DNA of 64,000 nt from Alphaproteobacteria bacterium (GTDB lineage Bacteria; Pseudomonadota; Alphaproteobacteria; UBA828), in NCBI GenBank assembly GCA_050173345.1, contig JBFXKW010000003.1, positions 60,323 to 124,322 of the forward strand. The letters run 5' to 3'. Position numbers and translations under genes: made by a program. Numbering within the stretch: position 1 is the stretch's first letter; each line of letters starts with the position of its first letter. The notes beneath the pieces were generated by a model. The model searched no databases and was not told the DNA's origin. It saw only the letters and a program-made list of their open reading frames with translations. Shown here piece after piece: positions 8,259 to 46,762 of this stretch.

Positions 8259-8316
8259 GTATTCGTATTCGTTCTGTTCTTGCGATCCGGTACGGGCGGA
8301 TTTTCGCCGGACGGCC

Positions 8317-8331: not shown

Positions 8332-8379
8332 CGATGAGTTATCGGTTTTCCCTACCCGATTGCCGCATCGTTAACGATT

Positions 8380-8395
8380 TTAATGGTATGTTAAC
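8380..8395. promoter_or_regulatory. Consensus CtrA box (TTAA-N7-TTAAC)
   Basis: The sequence ttaatggtatgttaac is a perfect match to the Caulobacter-type full CtrA site. It lies ~90 bp upstream of the ctrA ATG and ~120 bp upstream of the fliI start. Confidence 0.55.
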
Positions 8396-8483
8396 CGGGT
8401 TATTGTCCTATACCTAAGCAATAACCTTAACGCGGTGTCAGCCCCGCGATTTTCGGCGCTGTCGTTATGAGGGATGAGTCCAA

Positions 8484-23224: not shown

Positions 23225-23295
23225 CTCATGCTTCGACAAGCTCAGCATGAGGACTTGGAGTTTCGGCCTCATCCTGAGCCTGTCGAAGGATGAGG
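23225..23295. repeat. Interspersed palindromic repeat, family B (two hairpins: cctcatgcttcgacaagctcagcatgagg / cctcatcctgagcctgtcgaaggatgagg)
   Basis: A near-identical copy in inverted orientation lies at 45722..45790. Confidence 0.75.
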
Positions 23296-27040: not shown

Positions 27041-27074
27041 GCCTCCCCCTCTTTCGTCAGGGTGACCAGCGATG

Positions 27075-27113
27075 TGTGATCACAGTTACAACCGATTTCC
27101 GCACATTTGTGCG
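27075..27113. promoter_or_regulatory. Two short perfect palindromes upstream of tetR (candidate operator)
   Basis: The palindromes are tgtgatcaca (27075-27084) and cgcaca-tt-tgtgcg (27100-27113). They lie 35-75 bp upstream of the divergent TetR start. Confidence 0.25.
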
Positions 27114-27419
27114 AAGAATCCAAAGGAATCTAGACGCTTCGCTTGTTCGATGCCAAGCGGCGCGCCTCGCGGACGAGCCGAACCTGACCACTAGGGTATG
27201 CCTTTTGATCTATAATAGCGCCGACCATTACCGGGCTGCCGAGCGGCGCTGCATGTAATCATGAGATACATCCAGGTGCGGTAAGTCGCGGTGATGCGAA
27301 TAAGTATAGGTCACAGCATTGTTCGATCGCCGTATCCGCTTTGATCGTGCACAATATTGGGCCAGTTCTTCGAAGATCGCCCGGGTCACCACGTCCACTG
27401 TCCACTGTTCGAGAGAGCG

Positions 27420-27860
27420 ATGAGTATCACGGAAGGCGAAACGCAAGACGACATCATCGTGCGTGTCACGGGAAAGATCATCACGGCTTACGTGACGAAC
27501 AACCGGGTCGATCGGCTGCGCATCGGCGAGCTGATCGAGTCGGTGCGGAATTCGCTGGCCGCTCTGGCGAATGGCGAGCCCAGCGTCGGCCCCGGCGAAG
27601 CGCTCCGGCCCGCGGTGCCGATCAAGCGTTCGGTCACGCCTGACTATCTCATCTGCCTCGAGGACGGCGCTCGGCTCAAGATGCTCAAGCGGCATCTGCG
27701 CACGCACTACGGCCTGAGCCCCCAGGAATACCGCGAGAAGTGGAGCTTGCCGGCCGACTATCCGATGGTCGCGCCGAACTACGCGGCCAAGCGGAGCGAG
27801 CTGGCCCGCCAGATCGGGCTCGGCGGCCCGGAGCCCGCGAAGCGCCGCAAGCGGAGCTAG
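27420..27860 (+). CDS. mucR: MucR/Ros family transcriptional regulator
   Basis: It has the Ros/MucR zinc-finger region (SVTPDYLICLEDGARLKMLKRHLRTHYGLSPQEYREKWSLPADYPMVAPNYAAKRSELA) and is ~146 aa from the ATG at 27420. Confidence 0.9.
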   Translation: MSITEGETQDDIIVRVTGKIITAYVTNNRVDRLRIGELIESVRNSLAALANGEPSVGPGEALRPAVPIKRSVTPDYLICLEDGARLKMLKRHLRTHYGLSPQEYREKWSLPADYPMVAPNYAAKRSELARQIGLGGPEPAKRRKRS

Positions 27861-31234: not shown

Positions 31235-32334
31235 GACGCGGCTCCATTCATGAGGCGGACGCCGCTTTCGGCGTCGAACAAGGCAAGCAGGTTGGCGTGC
31301 GGCAGCAGCGTGATCCGCCCGCTGCCGGCCGGCACGGCCGAGGTCGGCACGACGAACTTGATCAGCGTGGAGCCGAACCTGGCGGTGACCACGGCCTCGG
31401 GCCCCTGCGGCTCGACCGCGAAGATCTCGGCCTGGAAGGAATCCGGCGTCCCCGGCTCGACGACGTCGACCGTCTCGGCGCGGATGCCGACGTTGACCGC
31501 CGCACCGTCCACCACGCCGGCAACTTTCACCGAAGCCGGCAGCGGGATGCGGGCGCCTTCCTGCTCGACATAGCGCCGCCCGCCCTCGGTTCCGAGGCTG
31601 CCCTTGACGAAGTTCATCGGCGGGTTGCCGAGGAAGCTGCCGACGAAGGTGGAGCGCGGATAGTGATAGACGTTGTAGGCGGTGTCGTACTGCTGGAGCA
31701 CGCCCTGGTTCATCACCGCGATCCGGTGGGCGAGAGACAGCGCCTCGATCTGGTCGTGCGTGACGTAGATGATGGTCTGCCTGGTTTCGAGCTGGATGCG
31801 GTGCAGCTCGCGCCGCATCTGGTGGCGCATCTCCGCCTCGAGGTTCGACAGCGGCTCGTCGAGCAGCAGGATCTGCGGGTTGGTGACGAGCGTGCGGCCG
31901 ATCGCGACGCGCTGCATCTCGCTCGCCGACAGCTCGCCGGGCTTGCGTTCGAGCTTGTCGCCGAGGCCGACGAACTCGGCCATCTTGTCGACCTGCTGGC
32001 GCAGCTCGGGATGGCGGACGCCGCGCACGCGCAAGCCGTATTCGAGGTTGCTGCGCACGGTCATGTGGGTGAACACGGCATAATCCTGGAACACCAGGCC
32101 GACATTGCGCTTGCCGACCGGCACCCTGCCGACGGGCTGGCCGTCGATCAGGATCTCGCCGCTGGTCGGCGTCTCCAGGCCGACGATCATGTTGAGCGTC
32201 GTCGACTTGCCGCAGCCCGACGGGCCGAGGAGGGCCATGGTCTCGCCCTCCTCCACCTGCAGCGACATGTCGTCAACGGCGACGAGCTGGCCGTATTCCT
32301 TGCGGAGGTTCTTCAGTTCGAGCTTGATCGCCAT
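31231..32334 (-). CDS. ABC transporter ATP-binding protein (MalK/UgpC type), second copy
   Basis: It has Walker A (GPSGCGKST), LSASEMQRVAIGRT and LLLDEPLS. It overlaps the downstream ATPase by 4 nt. Confidence 0.9.
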   Translation of the reverse strand: MAIKLELKNLRKEYGQLVAVDDMSLQVEEGETMALLGPSGCGKSTTLNMIVGLETPTSGEILIDGQPVGRVPVGKRNVGLVFQDYAVFTHMTVRSNLEYGLRVRGVRHPELRQQVDKMAEFVGLGDKLERKPGELSASEMQRVAIGRTLVTNPQILLLDEPLSNLEAEMRHQMRRELHRIQLETRQTIIYVTHDQIEALSLAHRIAVMNQGVLQQYDTAYNVYHYPRSTFVGSFLGNPPMNFVKGSLGTEGGRRYVEQEGARIPLPASVKVAGVVDGAAVNVGIRAETVDVVEPGTPDSFQAEIFAVEPQGPEAVVTARFGSTLIKFVVPTSAVPAGSGRITLLPHANLLALFDAESGVRLMNGAAS

Positions 32335-32343
32335 GGCCGGTGC

Positions 32344-33276
32344 CTAACGCTTGATCGCGCCGAGCGTCAGCCCGCGCACGAGATGCTTCTGGATGAAGAA
32401 GCCGATCACCACCAGCGGCACGATCGATACCGTCGCGAGCGCCGCCTGCACGCCGTAGAGCGCGCCCTCGGTCGCCGAGAAGTACTTGCTGAGCTGCACC
32501 GGGATGGTGGTCACCTTCGTATAGGTCAGCACCAGGGCGAACAGGAACTCGCTCCAGTTCAGGATCAGGATGAACAGCGTGGTCGCGATGATGCCGCCCT
32601 TGATCAGCGGTATGGTGATGCGCAGGTGCGCGCCCCATCGCGACATGCCGTCCATCATCGCGGCTTCCTCGATCTCCTTGGGCAGGTCGTCGATGAAGCT
32701 CTTCAGCATCCAGGTCGAGAACGGCACGGTGACCGCCGCATAGGCCAATATCAGGCCCCAGTAGGTGTCGGTGGCGCCGACATTGCTGAACATCACGACG
32801 AACGGTATCGCGATCGCTATGGGCGGGAACATTCGTCCCGATAATATGAAGAAGGGCGTCACGTTGCCGCCGAATCGGTATCGCGAGATCGATATCGCGG
32901 ACATCAGGCCGACGATGATCGAAAGCGCCGTCGCCGCGGTCGAGATGATAATCGAGCCCCAGATCGACTGCCAGGCGGACTTGGTGAGGATGTCGCCGAC
33001 CGCGCCGCCGATGCCGGTGCTCTCGGTGCGCTCGCCCTCGCCTCCCTCGTCGTACTGCCTGAGGCCGCCACGCTTCTCGAGGAGGACCGAAGGCCACAGC
33101 ACGGTCAGGTAGTTCTCGACCGTGGCCTGCCCGGAAACCCAGACCGGCGGCTTCTTGACCCATTCGCTCTGCGGCTTGAAGGAAGTCGAGACCATCCAGA
33201 AGACCGGGAACAGCGCGAAGATCAGCGCCAGGGTCAGGCCGATGCCGTTGTACCAGGTGAATCTGCGTTCCGGCAT
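32344..33276 (-). CDS. ABC transporter permease (MalG type) with an enlarged first periplasmic loop
   Basis: It has the EAA loop (LPKEIEEAAMMDGMSRWGAHLRITIPL). The ATG at 33276 overlaps the upstream stop (ATGA). Confidence 0.88.
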   Translation of the reverse strand: MPERRFTWYNGIGLTLALIFALFPVFWMVSTSFKPQSEWVKKPPVWVSGQATVENYLTVLWPSVLLEKRGGLRQYDEGGEGERTESTGIGGAVGDILTKSAWQSIWGSIIISTAATALSIIVGLMSAISISRYRFGGNVTPFFILSGRMFPPIAIAIPFVVMFSNVGATDTYWGLILAYAAVTVPFSTWMLKSFIDDLPKEIEEAAMMDGMSRWGAHLRITIPLIKGGIIATTLFILILNWSEFLFALVLTYTKVTTIPVQLSKYFSATEGALYGVQAALATVSIVPLVVIGFFIQKHLVRGLTLGAIKR

Positions 33277-34337
33277 CAGCGCTTCTCCAGGAGCTGATAG
33301 CGGATCGGGCGCAGCATCACGTTGATCAGCACGACGGTGATCACGAGCACGATGAAGCCGGCCGCGCCCGCGTATGCAAGGCGGAAATCTTCGAAGGCGA
33401 GCTTGTAGAGGTAGAGGCTGAGGGTTTCGGTCGCGGTGCCGGGGCCGCCGCGGGTGAGCAGGTAGATTTCGTCGAACAGCTTGATCACCTCCATGCCGCG
33501 GATCACGAAGGCGATGATGATGATGCCCTTCATGCTCGGCATCACCACCGTCCAGAAGATCCGCCAGTCGCTTGCGCCAAGCACCATGGCGGCACGCAGC
33601 GGATTCTGCGGCACGGCGTTGAGGCCGGAGAGCAGGATCAGGAAGAACAGCGGCGTCCAGTGCCAGACCTCGGTGATGACCACCGCGAAGAAGGCCGGCA
33701 GGCTGGTGTTGAGCCATTGCAGCTCGACCGGGCCGCCGGCGATCCAGCCGAGCACCTGGTTGATCGGGCCGGTGACCTGGAACAGCATGTACCAGGTGTA
33801 GCCGACCACGACCGGCATGATCATCATCGGCGTCAGCAGCGCGGTGAAGAACACGCGCTTCGCCGGGAACGCCTTGAGGAACAGCGTCGCGAGCCCGAGG
33901 CCGAGCAGGAACTCGAGCACGAGGGAGGTCACCGAGATCAGCGCGGTGCGGCCGAGCGCTTCCAGGAAGCGCGGCTCGTCCGTGATCAGGAAGTTGTAGT
34001 TGATGCCCTGGGCGAGGTCCTCGGTGAAAACGGTCCCCACCGCTTCCCAAAGGCCCAGGCCGGAAACTGGCGTCCACTCGGAAAAGCTGAGGATCAGCTC
34101 AAGGACGAAAGGAAATACCAGCAGCGCCATCAGAAGAATCTGAATTGGCGTGATCAGCAGGCCGCCTATGTATTTCTTGTCGTTCGGGTCAAACCGGCGC
34201 GTCGTCACCCGGGTAGCACCGGCTGCCAGCGCGCGGTTTTCAGCTTGATTGATTGCCACGGTCTGTCGATCCGAGATTATGTCTTGAGGCCGCTGGTGGC
34301 GCGCGCCGCCCCAAGCAACGGGACGGCGACGCGCCAC
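33276..34337 (-). CDS. ABC transporter permease (MalF type)
   Basis: It has six TM segments and an EAA-like loop (LRAAMVLGASDWRIFWTVVMP). The start is uncertain: GTG at 34337 or GTG at 34259. Confidence 0.85.
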   Translation of the reverse strand: MARRRPVAWGGARHQRPQDIISDRQTVAINQAENRALAAGATRVTTRRFDPNDKKYIGGLLITPIQILLMALLVFPFVLELILSFSEWTPVSGLGLWEAVGTVFTEDLAQGINYNFLITDEPRFLEALGRTALISVTSLVLEFLLGLGLATLFLKAFPAKRVFFTALLTPMMIMPVVVGYTWYMLFQVTGPINQVLGWIAGGPVELQWLNTSLPAFFAVVITEVWHWTPLFFLILLSGLNAVPQNPLRAAMVLGASDWRIFWTVVMPSMKGIIIIAFVIRGMEVIKLFDEIYLLTRGGPGTATETLSLYLYKLAFEDFRLAYAGAAGFIVLVITVVLINVMLRPIRYQLLEKR

Positions 34338-34400
34338 CTCACGGAACAGTGCCTATTCGCAGCCTTCTAAATCAGGCAGCCAAAGCCCGAAGGGCCCGGC

Positions 34401-36014
34401 CTACGCCCCCCAGTTGGCCACGCCGGCCGCCTTCTGCAGCGGCTCGGGATACATCTTCGCCAGCGCGATCCAGGACTCTTTCTGCTTGTCCAGGCCCCGG
34501 CGCCGGGTGATGCGGTCCATTTCCTTGGCCGCGTCCTTCATCGCCTCTTCCGGCGTCTTCTGCTTGTTGTAGGCCGCCTGGAGGTTCTTATCGATCGCGT
34601 CGTGATACTCGGCGGCGCCCGGCATGATAATCTCGGGCACGGCCTGCGTCATTTCGTCGAACTGCACGGCGAGATAGTCGCCCGGGTAGCCGGCATAGAA
34701 CTCCGGCGACGGCGCGAGGAAGTGATTACGCCGCCACGGATCGAAGTAGCCGCCCTCGTTCGGGATCGAGCGCATCGACATGGTCGGCCCGGTGAGCCAC
34801 TGCGCGTAGAGGTACGCCGCCTCCGGGATCTCGGAGTGCTTGTTGACCACGAAGTCCCACGCGATCGGCATGATCACCGCGCTGATCAACTCGCCGTTGA
34901 CCTCCGTGCCCGGGGGAGCCGACGGCGCGCTCTGGATCGGCCAGCCGTTCTCGTCGCGACCGGCGACAATCGACTTGGCGCCTTGCGCGTCCATGCTGTA
35001 GCGCCAGAGCGACGGCCAGCCGAACTGGCAGAAGCCGCGGCCCGCGGAGTAGTACTGGGCGTAGTTCTCGGTGAAGCCGTATGTGAAGTTCTCGGTCGGG
35101 TTGACCTCCTGAAGCGCGACCAGCTCCTCGACGGTCTTGATGCTCTCCGGCGAGGCGGCCATCGAGTTCATGTCGCCGTCGAAGTAGAGCACGCCCTTCG
35201 ACTGGAAGCGCATTTGCCAATGGAACTTGTTCCAGAACGGCGAGCGGTATTCCATCGCGCCGTAGAAGTCGTTCGCCTTGTCGTGCATGTCATGGCAGAG
35301 CTGGTCGTATTCGTCCCAGGTCCGCACCAGAAGCTTGTTGGAGACCGGCGCCTTGCCCTTCTCCTTCAGCTTGTCGATGCGGTAGCTCAGGTGCCAGACG
35401 TCGCCGTCGCAATAGAGACCGTAGTAGCGGCCCTTGTACTTCTGGCCGAACTCGCGGACCGGGAACTCGAGCTGGTTCGGCCCGTGGCTGTCCTCCGGGT
35501 CGTACTTCTCGACGTATTCCGTGATGTCGAGCGCCGCGCCGGCTTCGGCGAGCTCGGGCAGGCTGAGCGGCGCCGGGATCATCAGATCGTAGCGGCCGGT
35601 CTTGGCGACCGCTTCCTGCATGGCCTTCTGATGGGTCTGCGTCACCGGCACCTCGAGCAGCTCGACGTCGAAGCCGGTGAGCTCCTTCCACTCGGCGGTG
35701 AACGGCGCCATGTTGCCGCCCGAGCCCGAGGGATGCATGATCGAGATCGTCTTCTTCGGCGAATTCGCGTACAGCTCCTTCGCCGCTGCGATGGCCCGCG
35801 ATTCGGGCGTATCGCCCTCCTGCGCCCAGGCCCGGCGAACGCCGAGCGGTGCGCCCTGCATGAGATACTTTGCCGCACCGGCGCTCAGGCCGAGAGCAGC
35901 CATCCCCTTCATCAGGTCGCGGCGCGACACCTTGTAGTTCTTCTTGTCCAGGTGCATCGACCACAGCCGATGCAGCTCTTTGTAGATACGGCGCTTCTTG
36001 TCCTCGTAAGACAT
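34401..36014 (-). CDS. ABC transporter substrate-binding protein (large, Tat signal)
   Basis: It has the twin-arginine motif SRRDLMKGMAALGLSAGAA. The ATG at 36014 is preceded by AGGGGG, with an alternative ATG at 35957. It is the first gene of a 5-gene transporter operon. Confidence 0.8.
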   Translation of the reverse strand: MSYEDKKRRIYKELHRLWSMHLDKKNYKVSRRDLMKGMAALGLSAGAAKYLMQGAPLGVRRAWAQEGDTPESRAIAAAKELYANSPKKTISIMHPSGSGGNMAPFTAEWKELTGFDVELLEVPVTQTHQKAMQEAVAKTGRYDLMIPAPLSLPELAEAGAALDITEYVEKYDPEDSHGPNQLEFPVREFGQKYKGRYYGLYCDGDVWHLSYRIDKLKEKGKAPVSNKLLVRTWDEYDQLCHDMHDKANDFYGAMEYRSPFWNKFHWQMRFQSKGVLYFDGDMNSMAASPESIKTVEELVALQEVNPTENFTYGFTENYAQYYSAGRGFCQFGWPSLWRYSMDAQGAKSIVAGRDENGWPIQSAPSAPPGTEVNGELISAVIMPIAWDFVVNKHSEIPEAAYLYAQWLTGPTMSMRSIPNEGGYFDPWRRNHFLAPSPEFYAGYPGDYLAVQFDEMTQAVPEIIMPGAAEYHDAIDKNLQAAYNKQKTPEEAMKDAAKEMDRITRRRGLDKQKESWIALAKMYPEPLQKAAGVANWGA

Positions 36015-36290
36015 GGATAACCCCCTGCTTTTCCTCGTGACGGTCAATCCCAGACGCGCCACGAAACTTACACAACAGTTCCTCCACCGCAAGTCCCAGG
36101 CCGCTCCCAGGCCGGCCAGGCTAACGGTGCTCACTCCGAATGGCGGCGAAGCTACTCACGAAACCCCCTCAATGCAAATAGGAATCCACGGGCGGCGCCC
36201 GGGCCTGCTAGGTTCGCGCCGAGACGGCAGGAATGGCCGAACGCCCGCGGTTGTTCGCAGGCGTGGCGATCATATGGCCGGGGAACCTCG

Positions 36291-36863
36291 ATGCGCTGGA
36301 TCAGGGAGTATCGGATGCCCTCGCCGTCGCTGTGCGACGAGCTGATCAAGGGCTTCAAGAAGACGCGCCGACTCGGCCTGACCCATCCAGGCTTGAGCGC
36401 CAAGGGCGTCGATCCGTCCTGGAAGGATTCGGAGGACGCCAGCCTCACCTGTCTGCCATACGACATATATGCGAGCGCGGTGCGTGCCTACCGGGAGCAC
36501 GTCATGCTGTCGCTGCAGGCCTATCTGAAGGAGTTCCCGGTGCTGACCGAGGCGAGCAGCCGGCTCGGCTTCCTGGAGCCGCCGCAGATTCAGTACTACA
36601 AACCCGGCGGCGGCTTCCACGGCGCCCATTTCGAGACCAGCGGCATGGACATCGCGCATCGCGTGCTCGCCTTCCAGACCTTCCTCAACGACATCGAGGA
36701 AGGCGGCGGCACCTATTTCCTGTACCAGGACCACACGGTCAAACCGCAGAGGGGCAAGACCGTGATCTGGCCGGGCGGCTTCACCCACACCCATCGCGGT
36801 GTGGTCGCGCCACGGGAGGAGAAATACATCATCACCGGCTGGATCAGCTTCATCGGCGGGTGA
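36291..36863 (+). CDS. Prolyl 4-hydroxylase-like 2OG-Fe(II) oxygenase
   Basis: It shows the P4H-type pattern IQYYKPGGGFHGAHFE (HxE) .. AFQTFLNDIEEGGGTYF .. THTHRG .. KYIITGW. Confidence 0.7.
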   Translation: MRWIREYRMPSPSLCDELIKGFKKTRRLGLTHPGLSAKGVDPSWKDSEDASLTCLPYDIYASAVRAYREHVMLSLQAYLKEFPVLTEASSRLGFLEPPQIQYYKPGGGFHGAHFETSGMDIAHRVLAFQTFLNDIEEGGGTYFLYQDHTVKPQRGKTVIWPGGFTHTHRGVVAPREEKYIITGWISFIGG

Positions 36864-36897
36864 TCGATGGCGGGTTTCGGGTGGCTGCTCTGCCTGG

Positions 36898-36910
36898 AAT
36901 ATGAAAGCAA
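36898..36910 (+). promoter_or_regulatory. Candidate Ada box (AAT-N6-GCAA)
   Basis: The sequence aatatgaaagcaa lies ~90 bp upstream of the ada ATG and matches the E. coli Ada operator consensus AAT(N6)GCAA. The motif is short, so a chance match is possible. Confidence 0.3.
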
Positions 36911-37000
36911 GGGACGGAGTGCGCGGATCGATTGGCGCTCATAGGGTGTCGAGCCAAGCGAGCGAGACCTCGCCATTCGAAACCTGAGGAGCGTAGCACC

Positions 37001-38086
37001 ATGATGTCTTTGACGAGCGAGCATGCAGCCGCTTCGCCGGCCTTCGCGGACGACGACGCCCGCTGGGCCGCGATCGTACGCCGCGACCCGGCCGCCGATG
37101 GCTGGTTCTACACCGCGGTGAAGACCACCGGAATCTATTGCCGGCCGTCCTGCACGGCGCGCCTGCCGCGCCGCGAGAACGTCAGCTTCCATCAGACCTG
37201 CGCCGAAGCGGAGGCCGCTGGTTTCCGCCCGTGCAAGCGCTGCCGGCCCAACGAGGCGCCGCCCGCCGAGCGCCGCGCGGCTGTCATCGCCAAGGCGTGC
37301 CGGCTGATCGAGGCGGCCGAGGAGACACCCGACCTCGACGCCGTGGCGTCCGCGGTCGGCATGAGCCGGTTCCATTTCCAGCGCGTCTTCAAGGCGGTCA
37401 CCGGGCTGACGCCCCGCGCCTATGCCGCGGGCCATCGCGCGAACCGGCTGCGCGACGGCCTCACGCAGGCGCGCACGGTGACCGATGCGATCTACGACGC
37501 CGGCTTCAACTCGAGCGGACGCTTCTACGCCGGCTCGGCCGCGATGCTCGGCATGACGCCGACCAGTTACCGCACCGGCGGCCGCGGCGCCGAAATCCGC
37601 TTCGCGGTCGGCCAATGCTCGCTCGGCGCGATCCTGGTCGCGGCGAGCCCGGCCGGCATCTGCGCCATCATGCTGGGCGACGACCCGGACGGCCTGGCGC
37701 GCGAGCTTCAGCGGCGCTTCCCGAAGGCCGCGCTGGTCGGCGGCGACGCCGCGTTCGAACGCTGGGTCGCCCAGGTGATCGGCCTGGTCGAGGCGCCGCG
37801 GCTCGGCCTCGACCTGCCGCTCGACGTGCGCGGCACGGCGTTCCAGCGTCGCGTCTGGCAGGCGCTCCGCGCCATCCCGCCCGGCGAGACGGCGAGCTAT
37901 GCCGAGATTGCCGCCAAGATCGGCGCACCCAAGGCGGTACGCGCGGTCGCCCAGGCCTGCGCCGCCAACCCGCTCGCGGTCGCGATCCCCTGCCACCGTG
38001 TCGTCAGGACCGACAGCGCGTTGTCCGGCTATCGCTGGGGCGTCGAGCGCAAGCGCGCCTTGCTCGAGCGCGAGGCCGCGGCGTGA
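37001..38086 (+). CDS. ada: Bifunctional transcriptional activator / methylphosphotriester- and O6-methylguanine-DNA methyltransferase Ada
   Basis: It has Ada Zn-binding cysteines (YCRPSC .. CKRC), an AraC HTH and a C-terminal MGMT active site (IPCHRVV). Confidence 0.9.
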   Translation: MMSLTSEHAAASPAFADDDARWAAIVRRDPAADGWFYTAVKTTGIYCRPSCTARLPRRENVSFHQTCAEAEAAGFRPCKRCRPNEAPPAERRAAVIAKACRLIEAAEETPDLDAVASAVGMSRFHFQRVFKAVTGLTPRAYAAGHRANRLRDGLTQARTVTDAIYDAGFNSSGRFYAGSAAMLGMTPTSYRTGGRGAEIRFAVGQCSLGAILVAASPAGICAIMLGDDPDGLARELQRRFPKAALVGGDAAFERWVAQVIGLVEAPRLGLDLPLDVRGTAFQRRVWQALRAIPPGETASYAEIAAKIGAPKAVRAVAQACAANPLAVAIPCHRVVRTDSALSGYRWGVERKRALLEREAAA

Positions 38087-38817
38087 CGGCGTCCGCGCGA
38101 TCGAAGCCGCCGGCCGACGCGGCGCCACTCGCCGCGCTCGACTGGCGGGGCATCGAAGGCCAGCTCGACGAGCATGGCTGCGCGCTGGCCGGCGGCGTGC
38201 TGTCCGCCGACGCCTGCGCCTCGCTCGCGGCGATCTACCGCTCGGACGGGCCGTTCCGCCGCCATGTGGTGATGGAGCGCCACGGCTATGGCCGCGGCGA
38301 GTACCGCTACTTCGCCTACCCCCTGCCCGGCCTGGTGGCCGCGCTGCGCGAGGCGTTCTATCCGCCGCTTGCCGAGATCGCCAACCGCTGGAGCGCCGCG
38401 CTCCGCATCGAGACGCGCTACCCGGCTGACCATGTGGCCTATCTCGCGCGCTGCCACGCCGCCGGGCAGACCAAGCCGACGCCGCTGCTCCTGCAATACG
38501 CCGAGGGCGACTACAACTGCCTGCACCAGGACCTCTATGGCGAGCACGTCTTCCCGCTGCAGGTCGCGATCCTGCTCTCGGAGCCGGGCCGCGACTTCGA
38601 GGGCGGCGAGTTCGTGCTGACCGAGCAGCGCCCGCGCATGCAGTCGCGCGTCGAGGTGGTGCCGCTCGGCCAGGGCGACGCCGTGATCTTCCCGGTGCGC
38701 GAGCGGCCGGTGCCGGGCGCGCGCGGCATACGGCGGGTAAACTTGCGCCACGGCGTGAGCCGCCTGCGCGCCGGCCACCGCATGACCCTCGGCCTCATCT
38801 TCCACGACGCCAAGTGA
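38083..38817 (+). CDS. 2OG-Fe(II) oxygenase (non-AlkB, P4H-like) translationally coupled to ada
   Basis: The GTG start overlaps the ada stop (GTGA). It has an HxD triad (CLHQD), a distal His (LRHGVS) and the pattern FEGGEFVL. Confidence 0.75.
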   Translation: MTASARSKPPADAAPLAALDWRGIEGQLDEHGCALAGGVLSADACASLAAIYRSDGPFRRHVVMERHGYGRGEYRYFAYPLPGLVAALREAFYPPLAEIANRWSAALRIETRYPADHVAYLARCHAAGQTKPTPLLLQYAEGDYNCLHQDLYGEHVFPLQVAILLSEPGRDFEGGEFVLTEQRPRMQSRVEVVPLGQGDAVIFPVRERPVPGARGIRRVNLRHGVSRLRAGHRMTLGLIFHDAK

Positions 38818-38902
38818 GCGCCGCGGCTCCCACGGACGCGGCGAACAGCTCGGCCTGGAGGGCCGCGCCGTTCCCTAACATGGTCATGCCCGGCGGCTTC
38901 AT

Positions 38903-39751
38903 TTAATCTATAATGAAAGAATCTGCCGCTACCTCGACACAATACCTACAACTATCATCGCCAGTACCAAACAGTGTGATTCGATGCCCTGAGGTTATAT
39001 TGCTACGATTGAGTCCTTTTGAACGGAAAAAATGCAAAAACTCTTTTCTTTTATTTTCTGAAATTTTCATAGGAAACCGATTTGTGTAAAAATATACCAG
39101 CCAAATATGCGTTCCATCAGAGCGGGGGCCTGCCGAGAGAAAGCGTGTTCCTAAAGAATCCCTCCCAGGCCAATTTCTAACTTGGCCGTCATTGTCAATG
39201 TGCTTTATGTTCTTTCCACCAGCGAGAAGTATCACTTCAGTCGCTTGGTGTTGTGGCGCAGGGGTGAGCCATGTCGATTTACTTACGTCACGGGGACGAA
39301 GCTCGAAATGCCTCAGATCGTCACTCGGGAAGCGTATCCGAAACTGAATAAAAAGATCGTGGTGGCCCGTTGGAGCGTCCCCCTCCCACTTTTCTTCATG
39401 CCTTTCTATGCCAAAATTTAAACCCTCGGCGCCATAATTTTTCCAATACTCTTGAGTGATTCCGTAGTGTCGTTTGCCACTTCCGTGTATACTTATCTTT
39501 CTTATTCTCTGAAATCCCGATGAATAAATATATACATCTGGCTGATTCCTGCTGGCCCAGATTTTCCAAACATCACTGTGTTGCCCACTTGGATCACCCA
39601 CACCAAATCTGCACTCAAACGAACGATTTTTCATCTTCTTCCCACTTATATCATACACTAACAATTCAGAATTCGCTATCAGTAGCGTGCTGTTTTTCCC
39701 AGAGTCAAATCCGGACTTCCCGATAGCCGTTACAGCAGAGTGAAAAGCCAC
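38903..39751 (-). CDS. Orphan hypothetical protein encoded on a low-GC insert
   Basis: It is the only long ORF in a ~0.85 kb AT-rich block. The GTG at 39751 is bounded by an in-frame TAG. The first ATG at 39634 is preceded by GGGAAGAAG. Codons are rich in ATA/AGA/TTA/AAA. I recognise no motif. Confidence 0.6.
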   Translation of the reverse strand: MAFHSAVTAIGKSGFDSGKNSTLLIANSELLVYDISGKKMKNRSFECRFGVGDPSGQHSDVWKIWASRNQPDVYIYSSGFQRIRKISIHGSGKRHYGITQEYWKNYGAEGLNFGIERHEEKWEGDAPTGHHDLFIQFRIRFPSDDLRHFELRPRDVSKSTWLTPAPQHQATEVILLAGGKNIKHIDNDGQVRNWPGRDSLGTRFLSAGPRSDGTHIWLVYFYTNRFPMKISENKRKEFLHFFRSKGLNRSNITSGHRITLFGTGDDSCRYCVEVAADSFIID

Positions 39752-39760
39752 GCACTACGT

Positions 39761-40321
39761 TCACGGCGGCGGCTCGGCTTCCCACAACTCCGGATAGCGC
39801 CGCACGAAGCCGTCGGGCGCGAGCTCGAGCAGGCCCCGATAGCCGAAGCGCGGCGCCTCGTACCAGTAGGCGTGCTCGCCGCGCCGCTGGTAGGTCTGCG
39901 CCAGCTCGCTCAGCGTGCCGGCGTCGATGTCGAGCCAGGCCGCGGGCAGATGGGCGGTCTCGCCATCCGGGATCGGCACGCGGCGGAGCGGCAGGAGGTT
40001 GGTCGCCGGCGTGAAGCCGAGGTCGAGATCGGTCAGGTGATCGAGCCCCGGCACCAACGCGCCGTTCAGCGCCCAGGCGCCGTCCCGGCGCACCGCCGCA
40101 TAGTCGATGCGGCGCGTGCCGAGCAGGCCGTGCACCTGCCCCGCCATCGTCTCCCAGTCGGCAGCGCAATCGACCGCGTAGGCGAGGCTCGCCGGCCCGG
40201 CCTCGTGGCGGAACACGGCGACGCCGTCGAGCCGCCAGCCGGTATCGGTCCGCTGCAGCCGGCTCGCCTCGTGGCCCGGCACATCGAGCCGTCGCCAGAA
40301 CGCGGAAGCCACGATCGTCAT
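39761..40321 (-). CDS. Putative glycolipid-binding domain (PF06475-like) protein
   Basis: The pattern FWRRLDVPGHE .. LDLGFTPATNLLPLRR .. LAPDGFVRRYPELWE resembles that family. The ATG at 40321 is preferred over 40381. Confidence 0.6.
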   Translation of the reverse strand: MTIVASAFWRRLDVPGHEASRLQRTDTGWRLDGVAVFRHEAGPASLAYAVDCAADWETMAGQVHGLLGTRRIDYAAVRRDGAWALNGALVPGLDHLTDLDLGFTPATNLLPLRRVPIPDGETAHLPAAWLDIDAGTLSELAQTYQRRGEHAYWYEAPRFGYRGLLELAPDGFVRRYPELWEAEPPP

Positions 40322-40430
40322 GAGGCCTTGCCTCTGAAGTTGGAGCGTACACGCCAGGGTTGCCCGCGGCCATCCCTGCAAGCCTCCTCAACGTTCGGGC
40401 GCTGGAATCCGTTCAACAATCGGGCGTAAT

Positions 40431-40458
40431 CGCCTATTGATTGGCGCCTATTGATTGG
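40431..40458. repeat. Perfect 14-bp tandem direct repeat (cgcctattgattgg x2) in a divergent promoter region
   Basis: It was read directly from the sequence. It lies 33 bp upstream of the DUF853 ATG. Confidence 0.8.
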
Positions 40459-40490
40459 TCCTTCAGGCGCTACGATCGAGGGATGTGGCG

Positions 40491-42077
40491 ATGGCGAACC
40501 CCGACCGCGACGATGCGATCTTCGTCGGCAAAGGCGGCGAGACCGCCGAATTCCTGACGCTCCACCTCGCCAACCGCCACGGCCTCGTCACCGGCGCGAC
40601 CGGCACCGGCAAGACCGTCACGCTCCAGGTGCTCGCCGAAGGCTTCTCGCGCGCCGGCGTGCCCGTGTTCGCGGCGGACATCAAGGGCGACCTCTCCGGC
40701 ATCGGCGCCGCGGGCGAGGCCAAGGAGGCGCTGGTCAAGCGCGCCCAGGGCATGGGCATCGGCTACGAGCCGGACCGCTTCCCCGTGGTGTTCTGGGATT
40801 TGTTCGGCGAGCAGGGCCACCCGATGCGCACCACCGTCTCCGAGGTCGGTCCGGTGCTGCTGTCGCGGCTCATGGACCTGAACGACGTGCAGGAGGGCGT
40901 CCTCAACATCGCGTTCCGCGTCGCCGACGAGCAGGGCCTGCTGCTGCTCGACCTCAAGGACTTCCGCGCCATCCTCGGCTACATCGCCGAGCACGCCGCC
41001 GAGCTGACCACGCAATACGGCAACGTCTCCAAGGCGACCATCGGCGCGATCCAGCGCCAGATCCTCGTGCTGGAGAACCAGGGCGGCGCCAAGTTCTTCA
41101 GCGAGCCGGCGCTCGCCTTGAAGGACTTCCTGCGCACCGACCGCAACGGCCGCGGCGTCATCAACATCCTCGCCGCCGACAAGCTGATGGAGAGCCCGCG
41201 GCTCTACGCCACGTTCCTGCTCTGGCTGCTCTCCGAGCTGTTCGAGGAGTTGCCCGAGGTCGGCGACCTCGACAAGCCGAAGCTCTGCTTCTTCTTCGAC
41301 GAGGCGCATCTCCTCTTCACCGACGCGCCAAAGGCGCTGCTCGACATAATCGAGCAGGTGGTGCGCATGATCCGCTCGAAGGGCGTCGGCGTCTATTTCG
41401 TGACGCAGAACCCGCTCGACGTGCCGGACAGGGTGCTGTCGCAGCTCGGCAACCGCGTCCAGCACGCGCTCCGCGCCTTCACGCCGCGCGACCAGAAGGC
41501 GGTGAACGCGGCGGCGCAGACCTTCCGCCAGAACCCGGCGCTCGACACGGCGCGGGTCATCACGGAGCTCGGCAAGGGCGAGGCGCTGGTCTCCTTCCTC
41601 GAAGGCAACGGCACGCCCCGGATCGTCGAGCGGGTCATGGTCAGGCCGCCCGCGGCGCGCATGGGGCCGATCACGCCGGAGGAGCGCAAGGCCCTCATCG
41701 ACGCCTCGCCCGTCAGGGGGCGCTACGAGCGGGCGATCGATTCCGAGTCCGCCTACGAACTGCTCCAGAGCCGCGTGCAATCCGCCGCCGCGCCGTCGCC
41801 CGGCCAGCCTGCGCCGCAAGGGGAAGCCGCGCCCGCGGGCGGCGGCGTGCTTGGCCAGCTCGGCGCCATCGTCGGCTCGATCTTCGGCACCAACCGGCCG
41901 CGCGGCCGGCGTCTCTCCTCCGGCCAGCTGATCGCGCGCAGCGTGGCGCGCACCGTCACCAACCAGGTCGCCGGCAAGATGGCAGCCGAGCTCGGCAAGT
42001 CGGTCGGCGGCCCGATCGGCGCCTCGGTCGGCCGCGCCATCGTGCGCGGTGCGCTCGGCAGCATCCTGAGGCGCTAG
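40491..42077 (+). CDS. DUF853 / HerA-like P-loop ATPase (YjgR family)
   Basis: It has Walker A (GATGTGKT), Walker B ([10 protein letters not shown]) and a C-terminal Gly/Ala-rich tail. The ATG is preceded by GAGGGA. Confidence 0.85.
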
Positions 42078-42079
42078 AC

Positions 42080-42913
42080 GTGACGGACCGCGCGCGGCAC
42101 GTCGTCGACTTCTATTCGCGCCACCCGATCTCGGCGGAGCACATCCTAGCCAAGCTCGCGGCCGAGCGCGGGAACCTCGACGATCTGCGCCCCGACGAGC
42201 TGTTCCCGCACGACCAGGACCACTATGGCGGCCTCGCGGTGAACGATGCGATCGCGGAGCGCGCCGGCATCGGCCAGAGCACCAGGGTCGCCGATTTCTG
42301 CGCCGGCCTCGGCGGCCCGGCGCGCTACATGGCGCACCGCTACGGCGCCGAGGTCACCGGCATCGAGCTCAATCCCTCGCGCGCCGAGGGCGCGGAGGCG
42401 CTGACCCGGCGCGTCGGCCTCGCCGGCCGCGTGCGCGTCATCGAAGGCGACGTGACCGGCACCAGCCTGCCCGCCGCCTCGTTCGACGTGGTGATGAGCC
42501 AGGAGGCCTTCCTGCACATTCCCGACAAGGCGGCTGCCGTGCGCGAGGCCCATCGCCTGCTGAAGGACGGCGGCCGGCTCTGCTTCACCGACTGGGTCGT
42601 GCACCGCCCGCTCAGCGCGGACGAGGCCGAGACCATGTGGCGCGGCATCGCCGCGCAGACGCTGCAAAGCGTCGAGAGCTATCGCACGATGCTGGAAAGT
42701 GCGGGCTTCGGCGTCGAGAGCATCGACGACCTCACCGCCGACTGGGGCACGATCCTCGCCGAGCGCCTCGCCATGTATCGCAAGCTGCGCGAGGAGACGC
42801 TGGCGCGCGGCATGCCCGCGGGCGACGAGGCGTTCTATTCGGCCTATGTGCGCCTCGTCGAGCTGGTGCAGAGCCGCGCGCTCGGCGGCGCGAGGTTCAC
42901 CGCGGTCAAATGA
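42080..42913 (+). CDS. Class I SAM-dependent methyltransferase
   Basis: It has motif I (VADFCAGLGGPARYMA) and post-I/II motifs (VIEGDV, DVVMSQEAFLHI). The GTG start lies 2 nt after the DUF853 stop. Confidence 0.8.
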   Translation: MTDRARHVVDFYSRHPISAEHILAKLAAERGNLDDLRPDELFPHDQDHYGGLAVNDAIAERAGIGQSTRVADFCAGLGGPARYMAHRYGAEVTGIELNPSRAEGAEALTRRVGLAGRVRVIEGDVTGTSLPAASFDVVMSQEAFLHIPDKAAAVREAHRLLKDGGRLCFTDWVVHRPLSADEAETMWRGIAAQTLQSVESYRTMLESAGFGVESIDDLTADWGTILAERLAMYRKLREETLARGMPAGDEAFYSAYVRLVELVQSRALGGARFTAVK

Positions 42914-43069
42914 TCCCAAAACCGTCCCAGGAATCCTGTCATCGAGAGTCACATTCCGGCGCCGCCGGTGCTGTGTTAGCGTAATCAATAGGGGCTGCAC
43001 GAACGCGTACGGCGCGCGCAAACTTCGGCGAACCTGGCGAAAGTGCTTCCGCCTGCTCTGGAGGGTGGA

Positions 43070-44527
43070 ATGCTGCGAATGCTGCTGACTCTGCTGGCGA
43101 TAGTGTCGCTGGTCGCCAGCGCCTGGTGTGCCTCCGCTCGAGCCGAAAATGAAGACGCCGGCGAAGACGACGACCTGCCGCCGCTCGTAGAGCTCGCCCT
43201 GCAGCCATGGACCGGCACCTTCGATCAAATGGTCGAACGGAAGATGATCCGCGTCGTCATGCCGGTCGGGCTGACCACCTATTTCCTGGACGGCAAGGAG
43301 CAGAGCGGCCTCACCTACGAGTTCACGCAGGAGTTCGAGAAGCACCTGCGGAAGACTCTCGGGAAACGCGGGCGCGATCTGCAAGTGGTCGTGATTCCGA
43401 GCCGGCGCGACCGGCTGCTCGACATGGTGGTCGAGGGGCGTGCCGACATCGCGGCCGGCAGCGTCACCGTCACCGAGGATCGTGCCGCCATCGTCGATTT
43501 CAGCGCGCCGTTCCAGTCCAACGTCAAGGAGCTGATCGTCACCGGAACCGGGACGCCGCCGGCCAAGAGCCTCGATGAGCTGGTTGGGATCGAACTGCAT
43601 GTGCGCAAGTCGACGAGCCACTGGCACAGCCTCGAGCAGATCAATGCCGAGCGGAAGGCGCGCGGCGCGCCGCCGCTCACGGTCGTGCCGGCGGACGAAC
43701 TGCTGCGCATCGAGGACCTTCTCGAGATGGTCAGCGCCGGCGTGATCCCGGCGACCGTTTCCGATGACGGCGTCGCCGACGTGTTCGCACGCTATTTCGG
43801 CAGCATCGTCCTGCATCGCGACGTGCCGCTCGCCGAGGGGCGCCGCCTGGCCTGGGCCTATCGCAAGGGCGATGCCGAGCTGGGCAAGGCGATCAACGGC
43901 TTCGTCAAGACGGCGAGCCAGGGCACGGCGCTGCGCAACATCATCGTGGCCAAATACTGGAAAAACACGAAGTGGCTGGACAGGGTGCGCGACCCGGAGG
44001 ATCGGGACAGGCTCCAGCAGCTGAGCGAGTATTTCCGGAAATATGCCGGGCAGTACGACTTCGACTGGCTGATGGTTGCGGCGCAAGGCTACCAGGAATC
44101 GCGCCTCGACCAGTCGGTGCGCAGCCATGCCGGCGCCGTCGGCATCATGCAGCTCTTGCCGGCGACGGCCGCCGATGCGTCGGTCGGCATCCCGGACATC
44201 CACATCGCCGAGCACAACATCCACGCCGGCGTGAAGTACCTCCGTCACCTGCGCGACCAGTATCTGAGCGACCCGGCCCTGAGCGACCTGGACCGCACGC
44301 TGATGAGCTTCGCCGCCTACAACGCCGGCCCCGGAAACCTCCGCAAGGCCCAGAAGCGGGCGGACAAGCTGACGCTCGACCGCAATGTCTGGTTCGACAA
44401 TGTGGAGATCGCGATGGGCCAAACCGTCGGCCGCGAGCCGGTCAACTATGTGCGCAGCATCTTCAAGTACTACACCGCGTTCAAGCTCATCGCCGCCGAA
44501 ACCGAGGCACGCCACGCCCGAGAATAG
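43070..44527 (+). CDS. MltF-like lytic transglycosylase (solute-binding-like domain + SLT domain)
   Basis: It has a signal peptide (MLRMLLTLLAIVSLVASAWCASA), an SBP_bac_3-like N-domain and an SLT motif (ESRLDQSVRSHAGAVGIMQLLPATA .. AAYNAGPGN). Confidence 0.8.
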   Translation: MLRMLLTLLAIVSLVASAWCASARAENEDAGEDDDLPPLVELALQPWTGTFDQMVERKMIRVVMPVGLTTYFLDGKEQSGLTYEFTQEFEKHLRKTLGKRGRDLQVVVIPSRRDRLLDMVVEGRADIAAGSVTVTEDRAAIVDFSAPFQSNVKELIVTGTGTPPAKSLDELVGIELHVRKSTSHWHSLEQINAERKARGAPPLTVVPADELLRIEDLLEMVSAGVIPATVSDDGVADVFARYFGSIVLHRDVPLAEGRRLAWAYRKGDAELGKAINGFVKTASQGTALRNIIVAKYWKNTKWLDRVRDPEDRDRLQQLSEYFRKYAGQYDFDWLMVAAQGYQESRLDQSVRSHAGAVGIMQLLPATAADASVGIPDIHIAEHNIHAGVKYLRHLRDQYLSDPALSDLDRTLMSFAAYNAGPGNLRKAQKRADKLTLDRNVWFDNVEIAMGQTVGREPVNYVRSIFKYYTAFKLIAAETEARHARE

Positions 44528-44628
44528 GCAGGCCGAAGGCGGAGCCTCTTATGGCGAGCGGTTTCGCCTGCGCCGCCCGCACCGCCACACCGAGGCCGCC
44601 AGCACGCTTCGACGACGGTGCCAAGCAG

Positions 44629-44715
44629 TGGTGGCCCCTCCGGGAGTCGAACCCGGACCTTCTTGCGAAGAACGGATTTTAAGTCCGTTGCGTCTACCGG
44701 TTCCGCCAAGGGGCC
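44629..44715 (-). tRNA. tRNA-Leu (anticodon UAA)
   Basis: The reverse complement folds as a cloverleaf: acceptor GGCCCCT/AGGGGCC, anticodon stem ACGGA/TCCGT with loop CTTAAAA, a long variable arm, T-arm CCGGG-TTCGACT-CCCGG and an encoded CCA. Confidence 0.9.
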
Positions 44716-44755
44716 GCTGTCCGGGGCAGCTTCAGCGAACGTTCCCTCACCCTAA

Positions 44756-44779
44756 CCCTCTCCGCTCGGCGGGAGAGGG
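44756..44779. repeat. Short GC hairpin repeat (ccctctccgc..gcgggagaggg type)
   Basis: It is of the same sequence class as the 20304..20351 hairpin and lies in the tRNA-cinA gap. Confidence 0.4.
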
Positions 44780-44865
44780 ATACGGAGGCTTGGCGAGCGA
44801 TCAGCGAGCCTAGCCGCAGTTGGGCGAGGGGTGGTCCGGCCCGATCCTATCCCACCTCCGATGCT

Positions 44866-45627
44866 CTAGACACTCTCCTCCATCGGCTCGGCGCCGAGGG
44901 TTCGGATCAGGGCGGCGAGCTCGTCGGCCGCCCTGTCGAGCGCCGCCTTGTCCGTGCCGCGCAGGACCAGCGTGGTGCCGATCTTGCCGTCGCGCACGAA
45001 CGGGTAGCTGCCGATCTCGAGCATGGCGTAGCGCGCCTGCAATTCGCCGAGCCCCTTCGCAATCTCGCCCTCGGGCAGGTAGGTCGCGATCGAACGCGAG
45101 CCGACCGTGGGCCCGGTCCGCAAGGTGGGCACCGCGGCCTCGAACATGGCGCGCATCACCGCCGGGATGCCGGCCATGACATAGACGTTGCCGACGCGGA
45201 AGCCCGGCGCGCGGCTCAGCTTGTTCTCGATCAGCACGGCGCCTTCCGGTGCGTGCGCCATGCGCTGGCGCGCCTCGTTGAACTCGCGACCGGTCTCCTC
45301 ATAGAACGCGGCGAGAACGCGATAGGCATCGGGGTGGATCACGTTCCTGACGCCGAACGCCTTGGCCACGCTGTCCGCCGTGATGTCGTCATGGGTCGGG
45401 CCGATGCCGCCCGTGGTGAAGACGTAGGTATAGCGCGTGCGCAGCGCGTTCACCGCTTCGACGATGGCGTCCTCCTCGTCCGTCACCACGCGGACCTCCT
45501 TGAGCCGGATGCCGAGCACCGCGAGCTGGCGGGCGATGTAGTTGAGGTTGGCGTCCTGCGTGCGGCCCGAGAGGATCTCGTTGCCGATCAGGAGGATCGC
45601 GGCGGTCGGCGCAGCGGGCTCGGTCAT
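44866..45627 (-). CDS. CinA-like / MoCF-biosynthesis (MoaB/Mog-like) domain protein
   Basis: The translation LLIGNEILSGRTQDANLNYIARQLAVLGI .. VFTTGGIGPTHDDIT supports the call. The ATG at 45627 is preferred because the longer ORF runs into repeat family B. Confidence 0.8.
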   Translation of the reverse strand: MTEPAAPTAAILLIGNEILSGRTQDANLNYIARQLAVLGIRLKEVRVVTDEEDAIVEAVNALRTRYTYVFTTGGIGPTHDDITADSVAKAFGVRNVIHPDAYRVLAAFYEETGREFNEARQRMAHAPEGAVLIENKLSRAPGFRVGNVYVMAGIPAVMRAMFEAAVPTLRTGPTVGSRSIATYLPEGEIAKGLGELQARYAMLEIGSYPFVRDGKIGTTLVLRGTDKAALDRAADELAALIRTLGAEPMEESV

Positions 45628-45721
45628 GACGGTTCCATCGTGCCGTTCTCTTGGTGCGGGCCGATCATAGCGGAACGCCGGGGGAACCCGACAGCCCGCC
45701 GTCAACCGTGCGGCGGCGGCC

Positions 45722-45790
45722 CCGTCCTTCGACAGGCTCAGGACGAGGCCGAAACCCCAAGCCCTCATGCTGAGCTTGTCGAAGCATGAG
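45722..45790. repeat. Family B palindromic repeat, inverted copy
   Basis: Its reverse complement aligns with 23225..23295 with only a few mismatches over ~70 nt. Confidence 0.75.
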
Positions 45791-45898
45791 GACGCCGCAT
45801 CTCCCCACCCGCCCCACCCGCCGTCAGCGAGGTTGAAGCCGCCGCCGGTTGCTTTACATTCTGTGCCAACCGGACCACAGCCAGATCGGACCAGCTTC

Positions 45899-46762
45899 AT
45901 GTGGCGATCCGCCGAGAAACCCGAGAGCGCCGCGCCGGCGCCGGCCGAACGCCAAGCGGCCAGGAGCGACGCCGCCTATGAGCGCAGCGTCAAGGTACAT
46001 CCGCCCGAGGCGTTCGCGGCGATGCGCGTCGCCGGCCGGCTCGCCGCCGAGACGCTCGACTTCATCACGCCCCACGTCGAGCCCGGCATCACCACCGGCG
46101 AACTCGACCGGCTGTGCCATGACTTCATCGTCGAGCGCGGCGCGATCCCGGCGCCGCTCGGCTATCGCGGCTACCCGAAGTCGATCTGCACCTCGGTCAA
46201 CCATGTGGTCTGCCACGGCATCCCGGGCGAGAAGAAGCTGCACAAGGGCGACATCCTCAACATCGACGTGACCGTGATCGTCGATGGCTGGCACGGCGAT
46301 TCGAGCCGCATGTACGGCGCGGGCGACGCGCCGGTGAAGGCGAGGCGCCTGATCGACATCACCTACGAGGCGATGATGCGGGGGATCGAGGTGGTTAGGC
46401 CCGGCGCGCGGCTTGGCGACATCGGCCACGCCATCCAGTCCTATGCCGAGGGCCATCGCTGCGCGGTGGTGCGTGATTTCTGCGGCCACGGCATCGGCCG
46501 CGTCTTCCACGACGCGCCGAACATCCTGCACTATGGCGAGCCGGGCACCGGGCCGGAGCTGGTCGAGGGCATGTTCTTCACCGTCGAGCCGATGATCAAC
46601 CTCGGCACCTGGGAAGTGACGCTGCTCAAGGACGGCTGGACCGCGGTGACGCGGGACCGCTCGCTCTCGGCGCAGTTCGAACACACGCTCGGCGTCACCC
46701 GCGACGGCTACGAGATCTTCACCCTGTCGCCGGCGGGCTATACGCGGCCGCCCTATAGCTGA
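45899..46762 (+). CDS. map: Type I methionine aminopeptidase
   Basis: It has the motifs SVNHVVCHGIP, DIVNID-like (DILNIDVTV), HGIGRVFHD and FTVEPM. Confidence 0.92.
   Translation: MWRSAEKPESAAPAPAERQAARSDAAYERSVKVHPPEAFAAMRVAGRLAAETLDFITPHVEPGITTGELDRLCHDFIVERGAIPAPLGYRGYPKSICTSVNHVVCHGIPGEKKLHKGDILNIDVTVIVDGWHGDSSRMYGAGDAPVKARRLIDITYEAMMRGIEVVRPGARLGDIGHAIQSYAEGHRCAVVRDFCGHGIGRVFHDAPNILHYGEPGTGPELVEGMFFTVEPMINLGTWEVTLLKDGWTAVTRDRSLSAQFEHTLGVTRDGYEIFTLSPAGYTRPPYS

Follow-up and report, generated by a model that had tools for sequence, protein, structure and literature searches.

Single-gene anti-phage and abortive-infection genes form a class with which the gene analyzed here shares several traits. 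It stands alone, its family is patchily distributed, its GC content lies below that of its host, some of its homologues sit beside defence genes, and one is carried by a temperate phage. It differs from the class in that neither its sequence nor its predicted fold relates it to any catalogued defence protein. The gene lies on the minus strand at 38903-39634 of a 64,000-nt stretch of contig JBFXKW010000003.1 (Alphaproteobacteria bacterium, assembly GCA_050173345.1), which we call the window. It occupies a low-GC block that is very probably a foreign insert carrying a real gene of a real family.

The named relatives of the window protein include gp32 of the temperate actinophage BeeGee, which infects Gordonia (QTF81735.1), and a protein of Rhodococcus plasmids (WP_138846297.1). 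Both are full-length homologues (hhalign E 1.6e-29 and 5e-18, respectively). Further named members are WP_146139357.1 (Simplicispira suum), WP_292756102.1 (Methanobacterium sp.) and MCF8068296.1 (from a metagenome-assembled genome, MAG, of Desulfobacterales). All source-named members are annotated "hypothetical protein", and a literature search on member accessions and on BeeGee found no paper. The window protein and the named homologues have in common a core that reads RF.VG / W..W / D.Y / K.S.H.SG / R...W, and BeeGee gp32 and the named cellular homologues are 22-28% identical to the window protein. The differences are local: the Rhodococcus protein is extended at its C-terminus by ~110 aa, BeeGee gp32 is without the WPG motif, and a loop insertion of ~8-10 aa at residues ~140-152 is peculiar to the window protein. 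Full-length homology, the core residues, a length close to ~235 aa and stand-alone status all place the window gene in a BeeGee-gp32-like family.

The low-GC block and its gene

The block and its parts are as follows.

38901..39760, no strand: compositionally foreign block of ~0.86 kb, 44% GC (300-nt and 30-nt GC windows)
38903..39634, minus strand: intact coding sequence of 243 aa, with ATG at 39632-39634 and TAA at 38903-38905 (homologue alignment, conservation, AlphaFold2 model, pI and hydropathy)
39635..39760, minus strand: upstream region of 126 nt, acquired with the gene (sequence)
39635..39751, minus strand: 39-codon N-terminal extension in a 282-aa reading from GTG, probably untranslated (starts of the homologue alignments)

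An earlier note on this DNA, made from the letters alone, had described a low-GC block here, and windowed GC confirmed it. Positions 38903-39760 have a GC content of 44.2%, compared with a mean of 68.4% (sd 3.9) for 300-nt windows elsewhere in the 64 kb (z about -5.8). On its left side the block begins at the gene's TAA. In 30-nt windows, GC is 0.73-0.80 at starts 38820-38850 and 0.40 and 0.33 at starts 38890 and 38900; the drop spans ~40 nt and reaches its minimum at the TAA. On the right it ends directly at the TGA (39761-39763) of the Glycolipid_bind gene upstream, and GC rises there from 0.50 to 0.70 between starts 39730 and 39750. The foreign codon choice reported in the same note (ATA, AGA, AAA and AAT) was borne out by codon counts. 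GC at third codon positions (GC3) is 0.39 in the ORF (open reading frame) and 0.87-0.95 in the five flanking genes. For ATA, AGA, AAA, AAT and TTT, the ORF has frequencies of 20-49 per 1000 codons and the native genes 0-2.6 per 1000. This is 14 to more than 40 times native use, TTT being absent from the native set. The GC3 contrast and the two sharp boundaries strongly support the horizontal acquisition of a one-gene segment, as had been proposed.

It is exceedingly improbable that the block came in through misassembly or contaminant read-through and does not belong to the chromosome. In favour of this, composition changes very abruptly at the edges, and no copy of the gene above 43% identity is known outside this organism. 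Against it, a separately assembled 1198-bp Logan contig (SRR27751815, seen in 2 samples) crosses both junctions at 100% identity, and NCBI contig JBFWZO010000003.1 (GCA_050185315.1; 289,732 bp) is identical to the window over the 12.5 kb compared. Because the first contig spans both junctions and the second is identical, an artefact is very unlikely.

The only long ORF of the block (minus strand, 38903-39751) is full length with no frameshift or internal stop. As the earlier note had described, it has 282 codons from a GTG and 243 from the ATG at 39634, and the Shine-Dalgarno-like GGGAAGAAG lies directly before that ATG at 39635-39643. The homologues, which are ~235 aa long, align from their own residues 1-6 to residues 40-47 of the 282-aa query. 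A start at the GTG was rejected, since the homologues align only from those query residues onward. Because the homologues begin at the ATG, the 243-aa form is the actual product, and 243 aa is also the length that gene calling gave on the Logan contig. There is no second ORF with coding support inside the block, and an Rfam search of the block gave no match.

The TTGACT noticed earlier in the upstream region is located at 39703-39708 on the minus strand. A consensus scan of the 126-nt upstream region was empty of promoters, with no convincing -10 element, and matches across the scanned stretch were at chance level.

Protein family and predicted fold

The earlier note had called the gene an orphan, and this proved wrong. 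An exhaustive HMMER scan of 1.84 billion cluster representatives yielded 540 proteins at E<=1e-3, of which 83 were at <=1e-10 and 6 at <=1e-30. Since these are representatives of clusters at 50% identity, the family comprises at least 540 clusters. The best match other than the protein itself, P0002, is 43% identical (E 1e-48) over query residues 42-282, and the window protein scores 260 bits against the family profile. When 5.8 billion proteins were searched by word index, nothing but the gene itself came back. Repeating this search with 41 and with 150 family sequences gave few extra matches and no domain fusions, and most of the long "fusion" matches resemble mis-called starts. The word-indexed search had thus suggested an orphan where the exhaustive search gave hundreds of relatives, a practical lesson of this case.

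Members are found patchily in Bacteria and Archaea, on actinobacterial plasmids and in one temperate actinophage, BeeGee. Their median length is 235 aa (interquartile range 228-244). Across 150 sequences, W23, Y35, K46, S48, H50, G53, R78, W83, P103 and P156 are nearly invariant, and conservation is 81-89% at R9, F10, S20, W26, D33, W122 and R218. Every one of these residues is retained in the window protein, which departs from the consensus only at conserved sites of lesser importance (R39S, L171R, G228S and a few others). It is soluble and basic, with a pI of 9.4; the family, likewise soluble and mostly basic, has a median pI of 9.06, and 67% of members lie above 8. The C-terminal CxxC that had been singled out as a notable feature is present in the window sequence, but it is not a family trait, with Cys at positions 229 and 232 each occurring in 3% of the 150 homologues. 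For the same reason a zinc-ribbon or thioredoxin-like CxxC protein was rejected as an identity.

The earlier statement that no family could be assigned held for the libraries: the window protein matched no model in Pfam, PADLOC, NCBIfam or PHROGs, and 41 members gave no credible match to Pfam, PADLOC or PHROGs. In PADLOC v2.0.0, 0 families matched the window protein at E<=10, and the 41 members gave one spurious GajB match (E 0.005).

The protein had been described as beta-rich and without a transmembrane segment, and both points agree with our results. The maximum Kyte-Doolittle mean over 19 residues is 0.46, so no transmembrane segment is indicated, and AlphaFold2 with a 41-sequence alignment predicted ~15 strands and 3 helices. 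The predicted local distance difference test score (pLDDT) of this model is 91.6 and its predicted TM-score (pTM) 0.90. Foldseek against the PDB gave no match for the full model (best TM-score <0.2). With the N-terminal 142 residues modelled apart (pLDDT 92), the best E was 0.2 and the TM-score 0.26. The PDB output consisted of chance matches to Fab fragments and beta-propellers, and neither phmmer nor a profile search found a match among PDB sequences. The predicted fold is thus a confident one with no solved relative detectable by Foldseek. The sole real match, in BFVD, is the phage protein A0A8A5LJB3 (TM-score 0.72/0.82, E 9e-20), which shares the predicted fold and is probably BeeGee gp32, the accession link being unchecked.

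In the model, D33/Y35, K46/S48/H50 and R78/W83 alternate along strands (model residues 34-38, 45-49 and 79-84). Along a strand, every second residue faces the same side of the sheet. This alternation suggests that D33, Y35, K46, S48, H50, R78 and W83 may form a single pocket. A 2H phosphoesterase was considered on account of H50-x-S52-G53 and rejected: there is only one conserved H-x-S, H79 is not conserved, and no fold match was found.

Genomic contexts of the homologues and of the window gene

We compared 12 non-redundant chromosomal contexts, one phage record and four plasmid records. The contexts with recognizable neighbours are these.

Context 1: BREX PglZ (PADLOC 1e-291) with BrxL, PIN and HigBA-like toxin-antitoxin modules, and IS1
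Context 2: type III methyltransferase (3e-164) with a ResIII helicase
Context 3, Methanobacterium: GmrSD-like gene with an ApeA/PDC-S58 HEPN gene (2e-75); an SLFN_AlbA_2 gene nearby
Context 4: TIR-effector-like gene immediately upstream (1.7e-11); ORC/Cdc6-like gene, primase zinc-ribbon and integrase nearby
Another context: integrase-bounded island of hypothetical genes
Another context: small islet with a HI1420-downstream-type antitoxin-like gene
P0002, the closest homologue (41-43% identity): directly downstream of a triad of VWA, PP2C and Ser-Thr-kinase-plus-zinc-ribbon genes (L003 264-3922, Logan ERR14224705; L004)
Phage BeeGee gp32 (L064 4893-6621, covering gp31-gp32): accessory region between the tail/lysis genes and the integrase gp42
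Rhodococcus plasmids: member just downstream of a MobF relaxase and a NYN gene
Mycobacterium paragordonae plasmid NZ_CP025547.1 (L002 5932-6306): member cut after ~124 aa by insertion of an IS1182 transposase

In BeeGee, gp32 adjoins gp31, a ClpP-like serine protease of SDH type (PF01972, E 2e-16). The M. paragordonae plasmid region is dense in the insertion sequences (IS) IS256, IS3 and IS1182. No conserved neighbour or partner gene was found across 20 loci, and a placement beside ada was seen in the window only. The GC content of the gene is below that of its own locus in 14 of 15 loci, the window copy being the extreme case (-0.24). Members are rare in mobile-element collections: the family occurred in 1 of 50,697 phage records and in 4 of 72,556 plasmid records, and four pattern-limited scans of IMG/VR with different queries returned nothing.

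The triad upstream of P0002 resembles, by Pfam domain content, the TerY-P-type VWA/PP2C/Ser-Thr kinase triad that Gao et al. reportedly described in 2020 as a defence system. PADLOC missed the VWA and PP2C genes and matched the kinase weakly to other kinase models, and the window has no such triad. A recurrent link to VWA, PP2C and kinase genes was rejected, the arrangement being present in one context only; a look-alike 736-aa neighbour in locus L048 is RecD2. A type II toxin-antitoxin module was likewise rejected, with no second coding ORF in the block and no conserved partner at homologous loci.

In the window, the block is flanked by native genes.

37001-38086, plus strand: Ada, with Ada_Zn_binding, HTH_AraC and MGMT domains (domain search)
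38083-38817, plus strand: Oxygenase-NA 2OG-Fe(II) oxygenase gene, overlapping Ada by 4 nt (domain search)
38843..38873, no strand: GC-rich native hairpin, GAACAGCTCGGCC-TGGAG-GGCCGCGCCGTTC (minimum free energy -46.7 kcal/mol for 38812-38910, z -2.3)
39761..40321, minus strand: Glycolipid_bind gene (PF06475), 186 aa, GC3 0.90, native (domain search, GC3)

The ada and oxygenase genes form a native operon (37001..38817, plus strand) convergent to the foreign gene, and the Glycolipid_bind gene lies immediately upstream of the foreign gene in the same direction. The hairpin is inside an 85-nt spacer of host composition between the stop codons of the oxygenase and foreign genes, so that the insert sits between the Glycolipid_bind stop codon and the native hairpin. 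This hairpin is likely the original bidirectional terminator of two convergent native units, now also serving the foreign gene. There is no terminator between the Glycolipid_bind gene and the foreign gene, which makes read-through transcription from the upstream gene plausible.

The lack of an integrase, transposase, terminal repeat or adjoining tRNA, pointed out in the earlier note, held for the called genes of 33761-46321 and in a repeat search. No integrase or transposase is among those called genes, and the repeats around the block are only short GC-rich ones at chance level. The nearest and only tRNA, Leu-TAA at 44629-44715, lies 4.9 kb away beyond native genes. As a one-gene unit of ~0.9 kb in an intergenic terminator zone, the insert resembles an integron cassette or an insertion of an IS or a miniature inverted-repeat transposable element (MITE). 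It differs from a cassette in carrying its own 126-nt 5' region. A cassette was rejected, with no integrase in the called genes and no attC-like imperfect inverted repeat 3' of the stop, because the foreign composition ends at the stop. An IS, MITE or transposon was rejected as well, there being no terminal inverted repeats, no target duplication and no transposase within ~6 kb. A tRNA-linked island or prophage remnant was rejected on the position of the sole tRNA behind native genes and the lack of an integrase or repeats.

An exact-protein look-up returned the source genome alone, and the search for an empty site gave none. Among GTDB species representatives, nothing close to the Glycolipid_bind gene or syntenic with it turned up, the best match being 61% identical, in a Roseiarcus MAG. 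Its relatives at 49-61% identity are patchy (Roseiarcus MAG, Armatimonadota, Acidimicrobiia, Desulfobulbaceae, Polyangia, Variovorax and Gemmatimonadota), and none is syntenic with the window.

Elsewhere in the window, two other stretches of 300-550 nt fall below 55% GC, at ~8131-8686 and ~27016-27557, and each consists of a short intergenic region (8259-8483 and 27041-27356) plus part of the adjacent genes. The spot at 8259-8483 (minimum 49% GC in a 300-nt window) lies between a gene for an ATPase of the type III secretion or flagellar type (6900-8258, minus strand) and one for an OmpR-type response regulator (8484-9194, plus strand) that resembles CtrA by eye; the spot has the look of a regulatory region, not of an insert. 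The AT-rich intergenic region 27041-27356 precedes a gene for a ROS/MucR regulator (PF05443, E 2.9e-44) at 27357-27860 on the plus strand.

A 5-kb region at 32000-37000, just upstream of ada, has 63-64% GC compared with ~69-70% and contains genes for an SBP_bac_1 ABC-transporter binding protein and a small 2OG-FeII_Oxy_3 protein; it may be an older, partly ameliorated acquisition. A secondary BLAST match showed a 66-nt sequence at 23225-23290 and 45725-45790, with 95% identity between the copies. Positions 20620-20855 (plus strand) match the Ruegeria cis90 small RNA in Rfam (RF02648, 63.5 bits, above the gathering score); taken together with MucR, this match indicates an alpha-proteobacterial host.

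Candidate functions

Our tentative preference is that the gene is a stand-alone conflict gene, more likely host-side (defence or abortive infection) than element-side, with residues directed at nucleic acid or nucleotides. In this reading, the foreign segment, which is made up of the upstream region and the intact 243-aa gene without an attached mobility gene or repeat, would encode a protein that acts on its own in genetic conflict, most likely in defence against phages or mobile elements or in abortive infection. Its working part would be W23, D33, Y35, K46, S48, H50, G53, R78 and W83, on strands of the N-terminal half, and these conserved residues would bind or hydrolyse a nucleic acid or nucleotide ligand. 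Such a ligand is suggested because conserved polar and aromatic residues go together with a basic charge. Expression may come by read-through from the upstream gene, and the host's MucR may damp it. The rarity of the family in viral collections favours a host-side role. A guess at defence or abortive infection had already been made in the earlier note; it gains contextual support from the BREX, restriction-modification, ApeA and TIR-like neighbours of homologues. The integrase-bounded island, the triad beside P0002, the accessory region of BeeGee and the plasmid copies add to this support, as do the low GC in 14 of 15 loci and the basic character of the family.

A bolder form of this proposal, which we regard as doubtful, is a single-protein immune or counter-immune module of a fold not seen before. 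In it, D33, Y35, K46, S48, H50 and R78, with W23 and W83, would make up a new active site directed at nucleic acid or nucleotides. Horizontal transfer would have carried the module through Bacteria and Archaea and onto plasmids and phages, and an alpha-proteobacterium would have picked up the copy in the window only recently.

Several observations weigh against a conflict role. PADLOC v2 searches with the protein and 41 members gave no credible homologue among characterised defence proteins. Of the 12 chromosomal contexts, a small sample, 4 (contexts 1 to 4 above) have confirmed defence genes within ~5 kb. Copies also occur as singletons among housekeeping genes, in the window and in loci L048 (next to RecD2), L054 and L067 (next to Rex/Alr/Lon). 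In the window protein, S and R replace R39 and L171, two residues that more than 80% of members share, and the promoter evidence for the gene is weak. The source assembly's gene calls (GCA_050185315.1, JBFWZO010000003.1) contain nothing in the 943-bp gap 38818-39760, and the 243-aa product is on record from the short Logan contig only. The gene caller probably skipped the ORF owing to its strongly foreign composition, a second practical lesson.

The singletons (at least four among housekeeping genes) would fit an accessory function outside genetic conflict, for example in stress, nucleic-acid repair or regulation, with the defence neighbours explained by accessory genes pooling in variable regions. 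The absence of defence-family homology and the small context sample, which has no baseline, also speak for this explanation. We think it unlikely, though, since the family is patchy across phyla, has low GC relative to its flanks, repeatedly neighbours BREX, restriction-modification, ApeA or TIR-like genes and has one phage copy. That pattern is typical of conflict genes and not of metabolic or repair genes, and the adjacency to ada is absent from every other locus. A counter-defence or establishment gene, by which phages or plasmids overcome host immunity and of which the chromosomal copies would be element remnants, is quite improbable. It would account for the copies in the accessory region of a temperate phage, on Rhodococcus plasmids, on the IS-rich Mycobacterium plasmid and in integrase-bounded islands. 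It is at odds with the rarity of the family in phage, viral and plasmid collections and with the fact that most copies are chromosomal, often beside defence genes, and not on mobile elements. Most known anti-defence proteins are also smaller than ~235 aa, which counts against it further.

The remaining explanation, which we consider rather unlikely, is that the insert is silent passenger DNA: intact but unexpressed or useless, xenogeneically silenced and heading for decay. Its extremely foreign codon usage, the lack of a convincing promoter and the omission of the ORF from the genome annotation are all consistent with this. In alpha-proteobacteria, AT-rich accessory genes are subject to xenogeneic silencing by MucR (PMC9410896). 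Because the host encodes such a silencer (27357-27860), MucR may silence the 44%-GC insert, and the gene may not be expressed. On the other side stand a full-length ORF that retains nearly all family-invariant residues and the possibility of read-through. Silence would in any case concern present activity and not identity, and it is compatible with our preferred reading of a host-side conflict gene.

For now, this is one of many uncharacterised accessory families, and a reasonable experimental candidate whose interest is moderate and not exceptional. Lysogens of Gordonia terrae that carry BeeGee, with its gp32, are a tractable system for tests. If a role in conflict with phages or mobile elements is true, the family would provide a stand-alone immune protein whose fold and conserved residues lack a characterised relative, and proteins of this kind have earlier given new biochemistry and tools.

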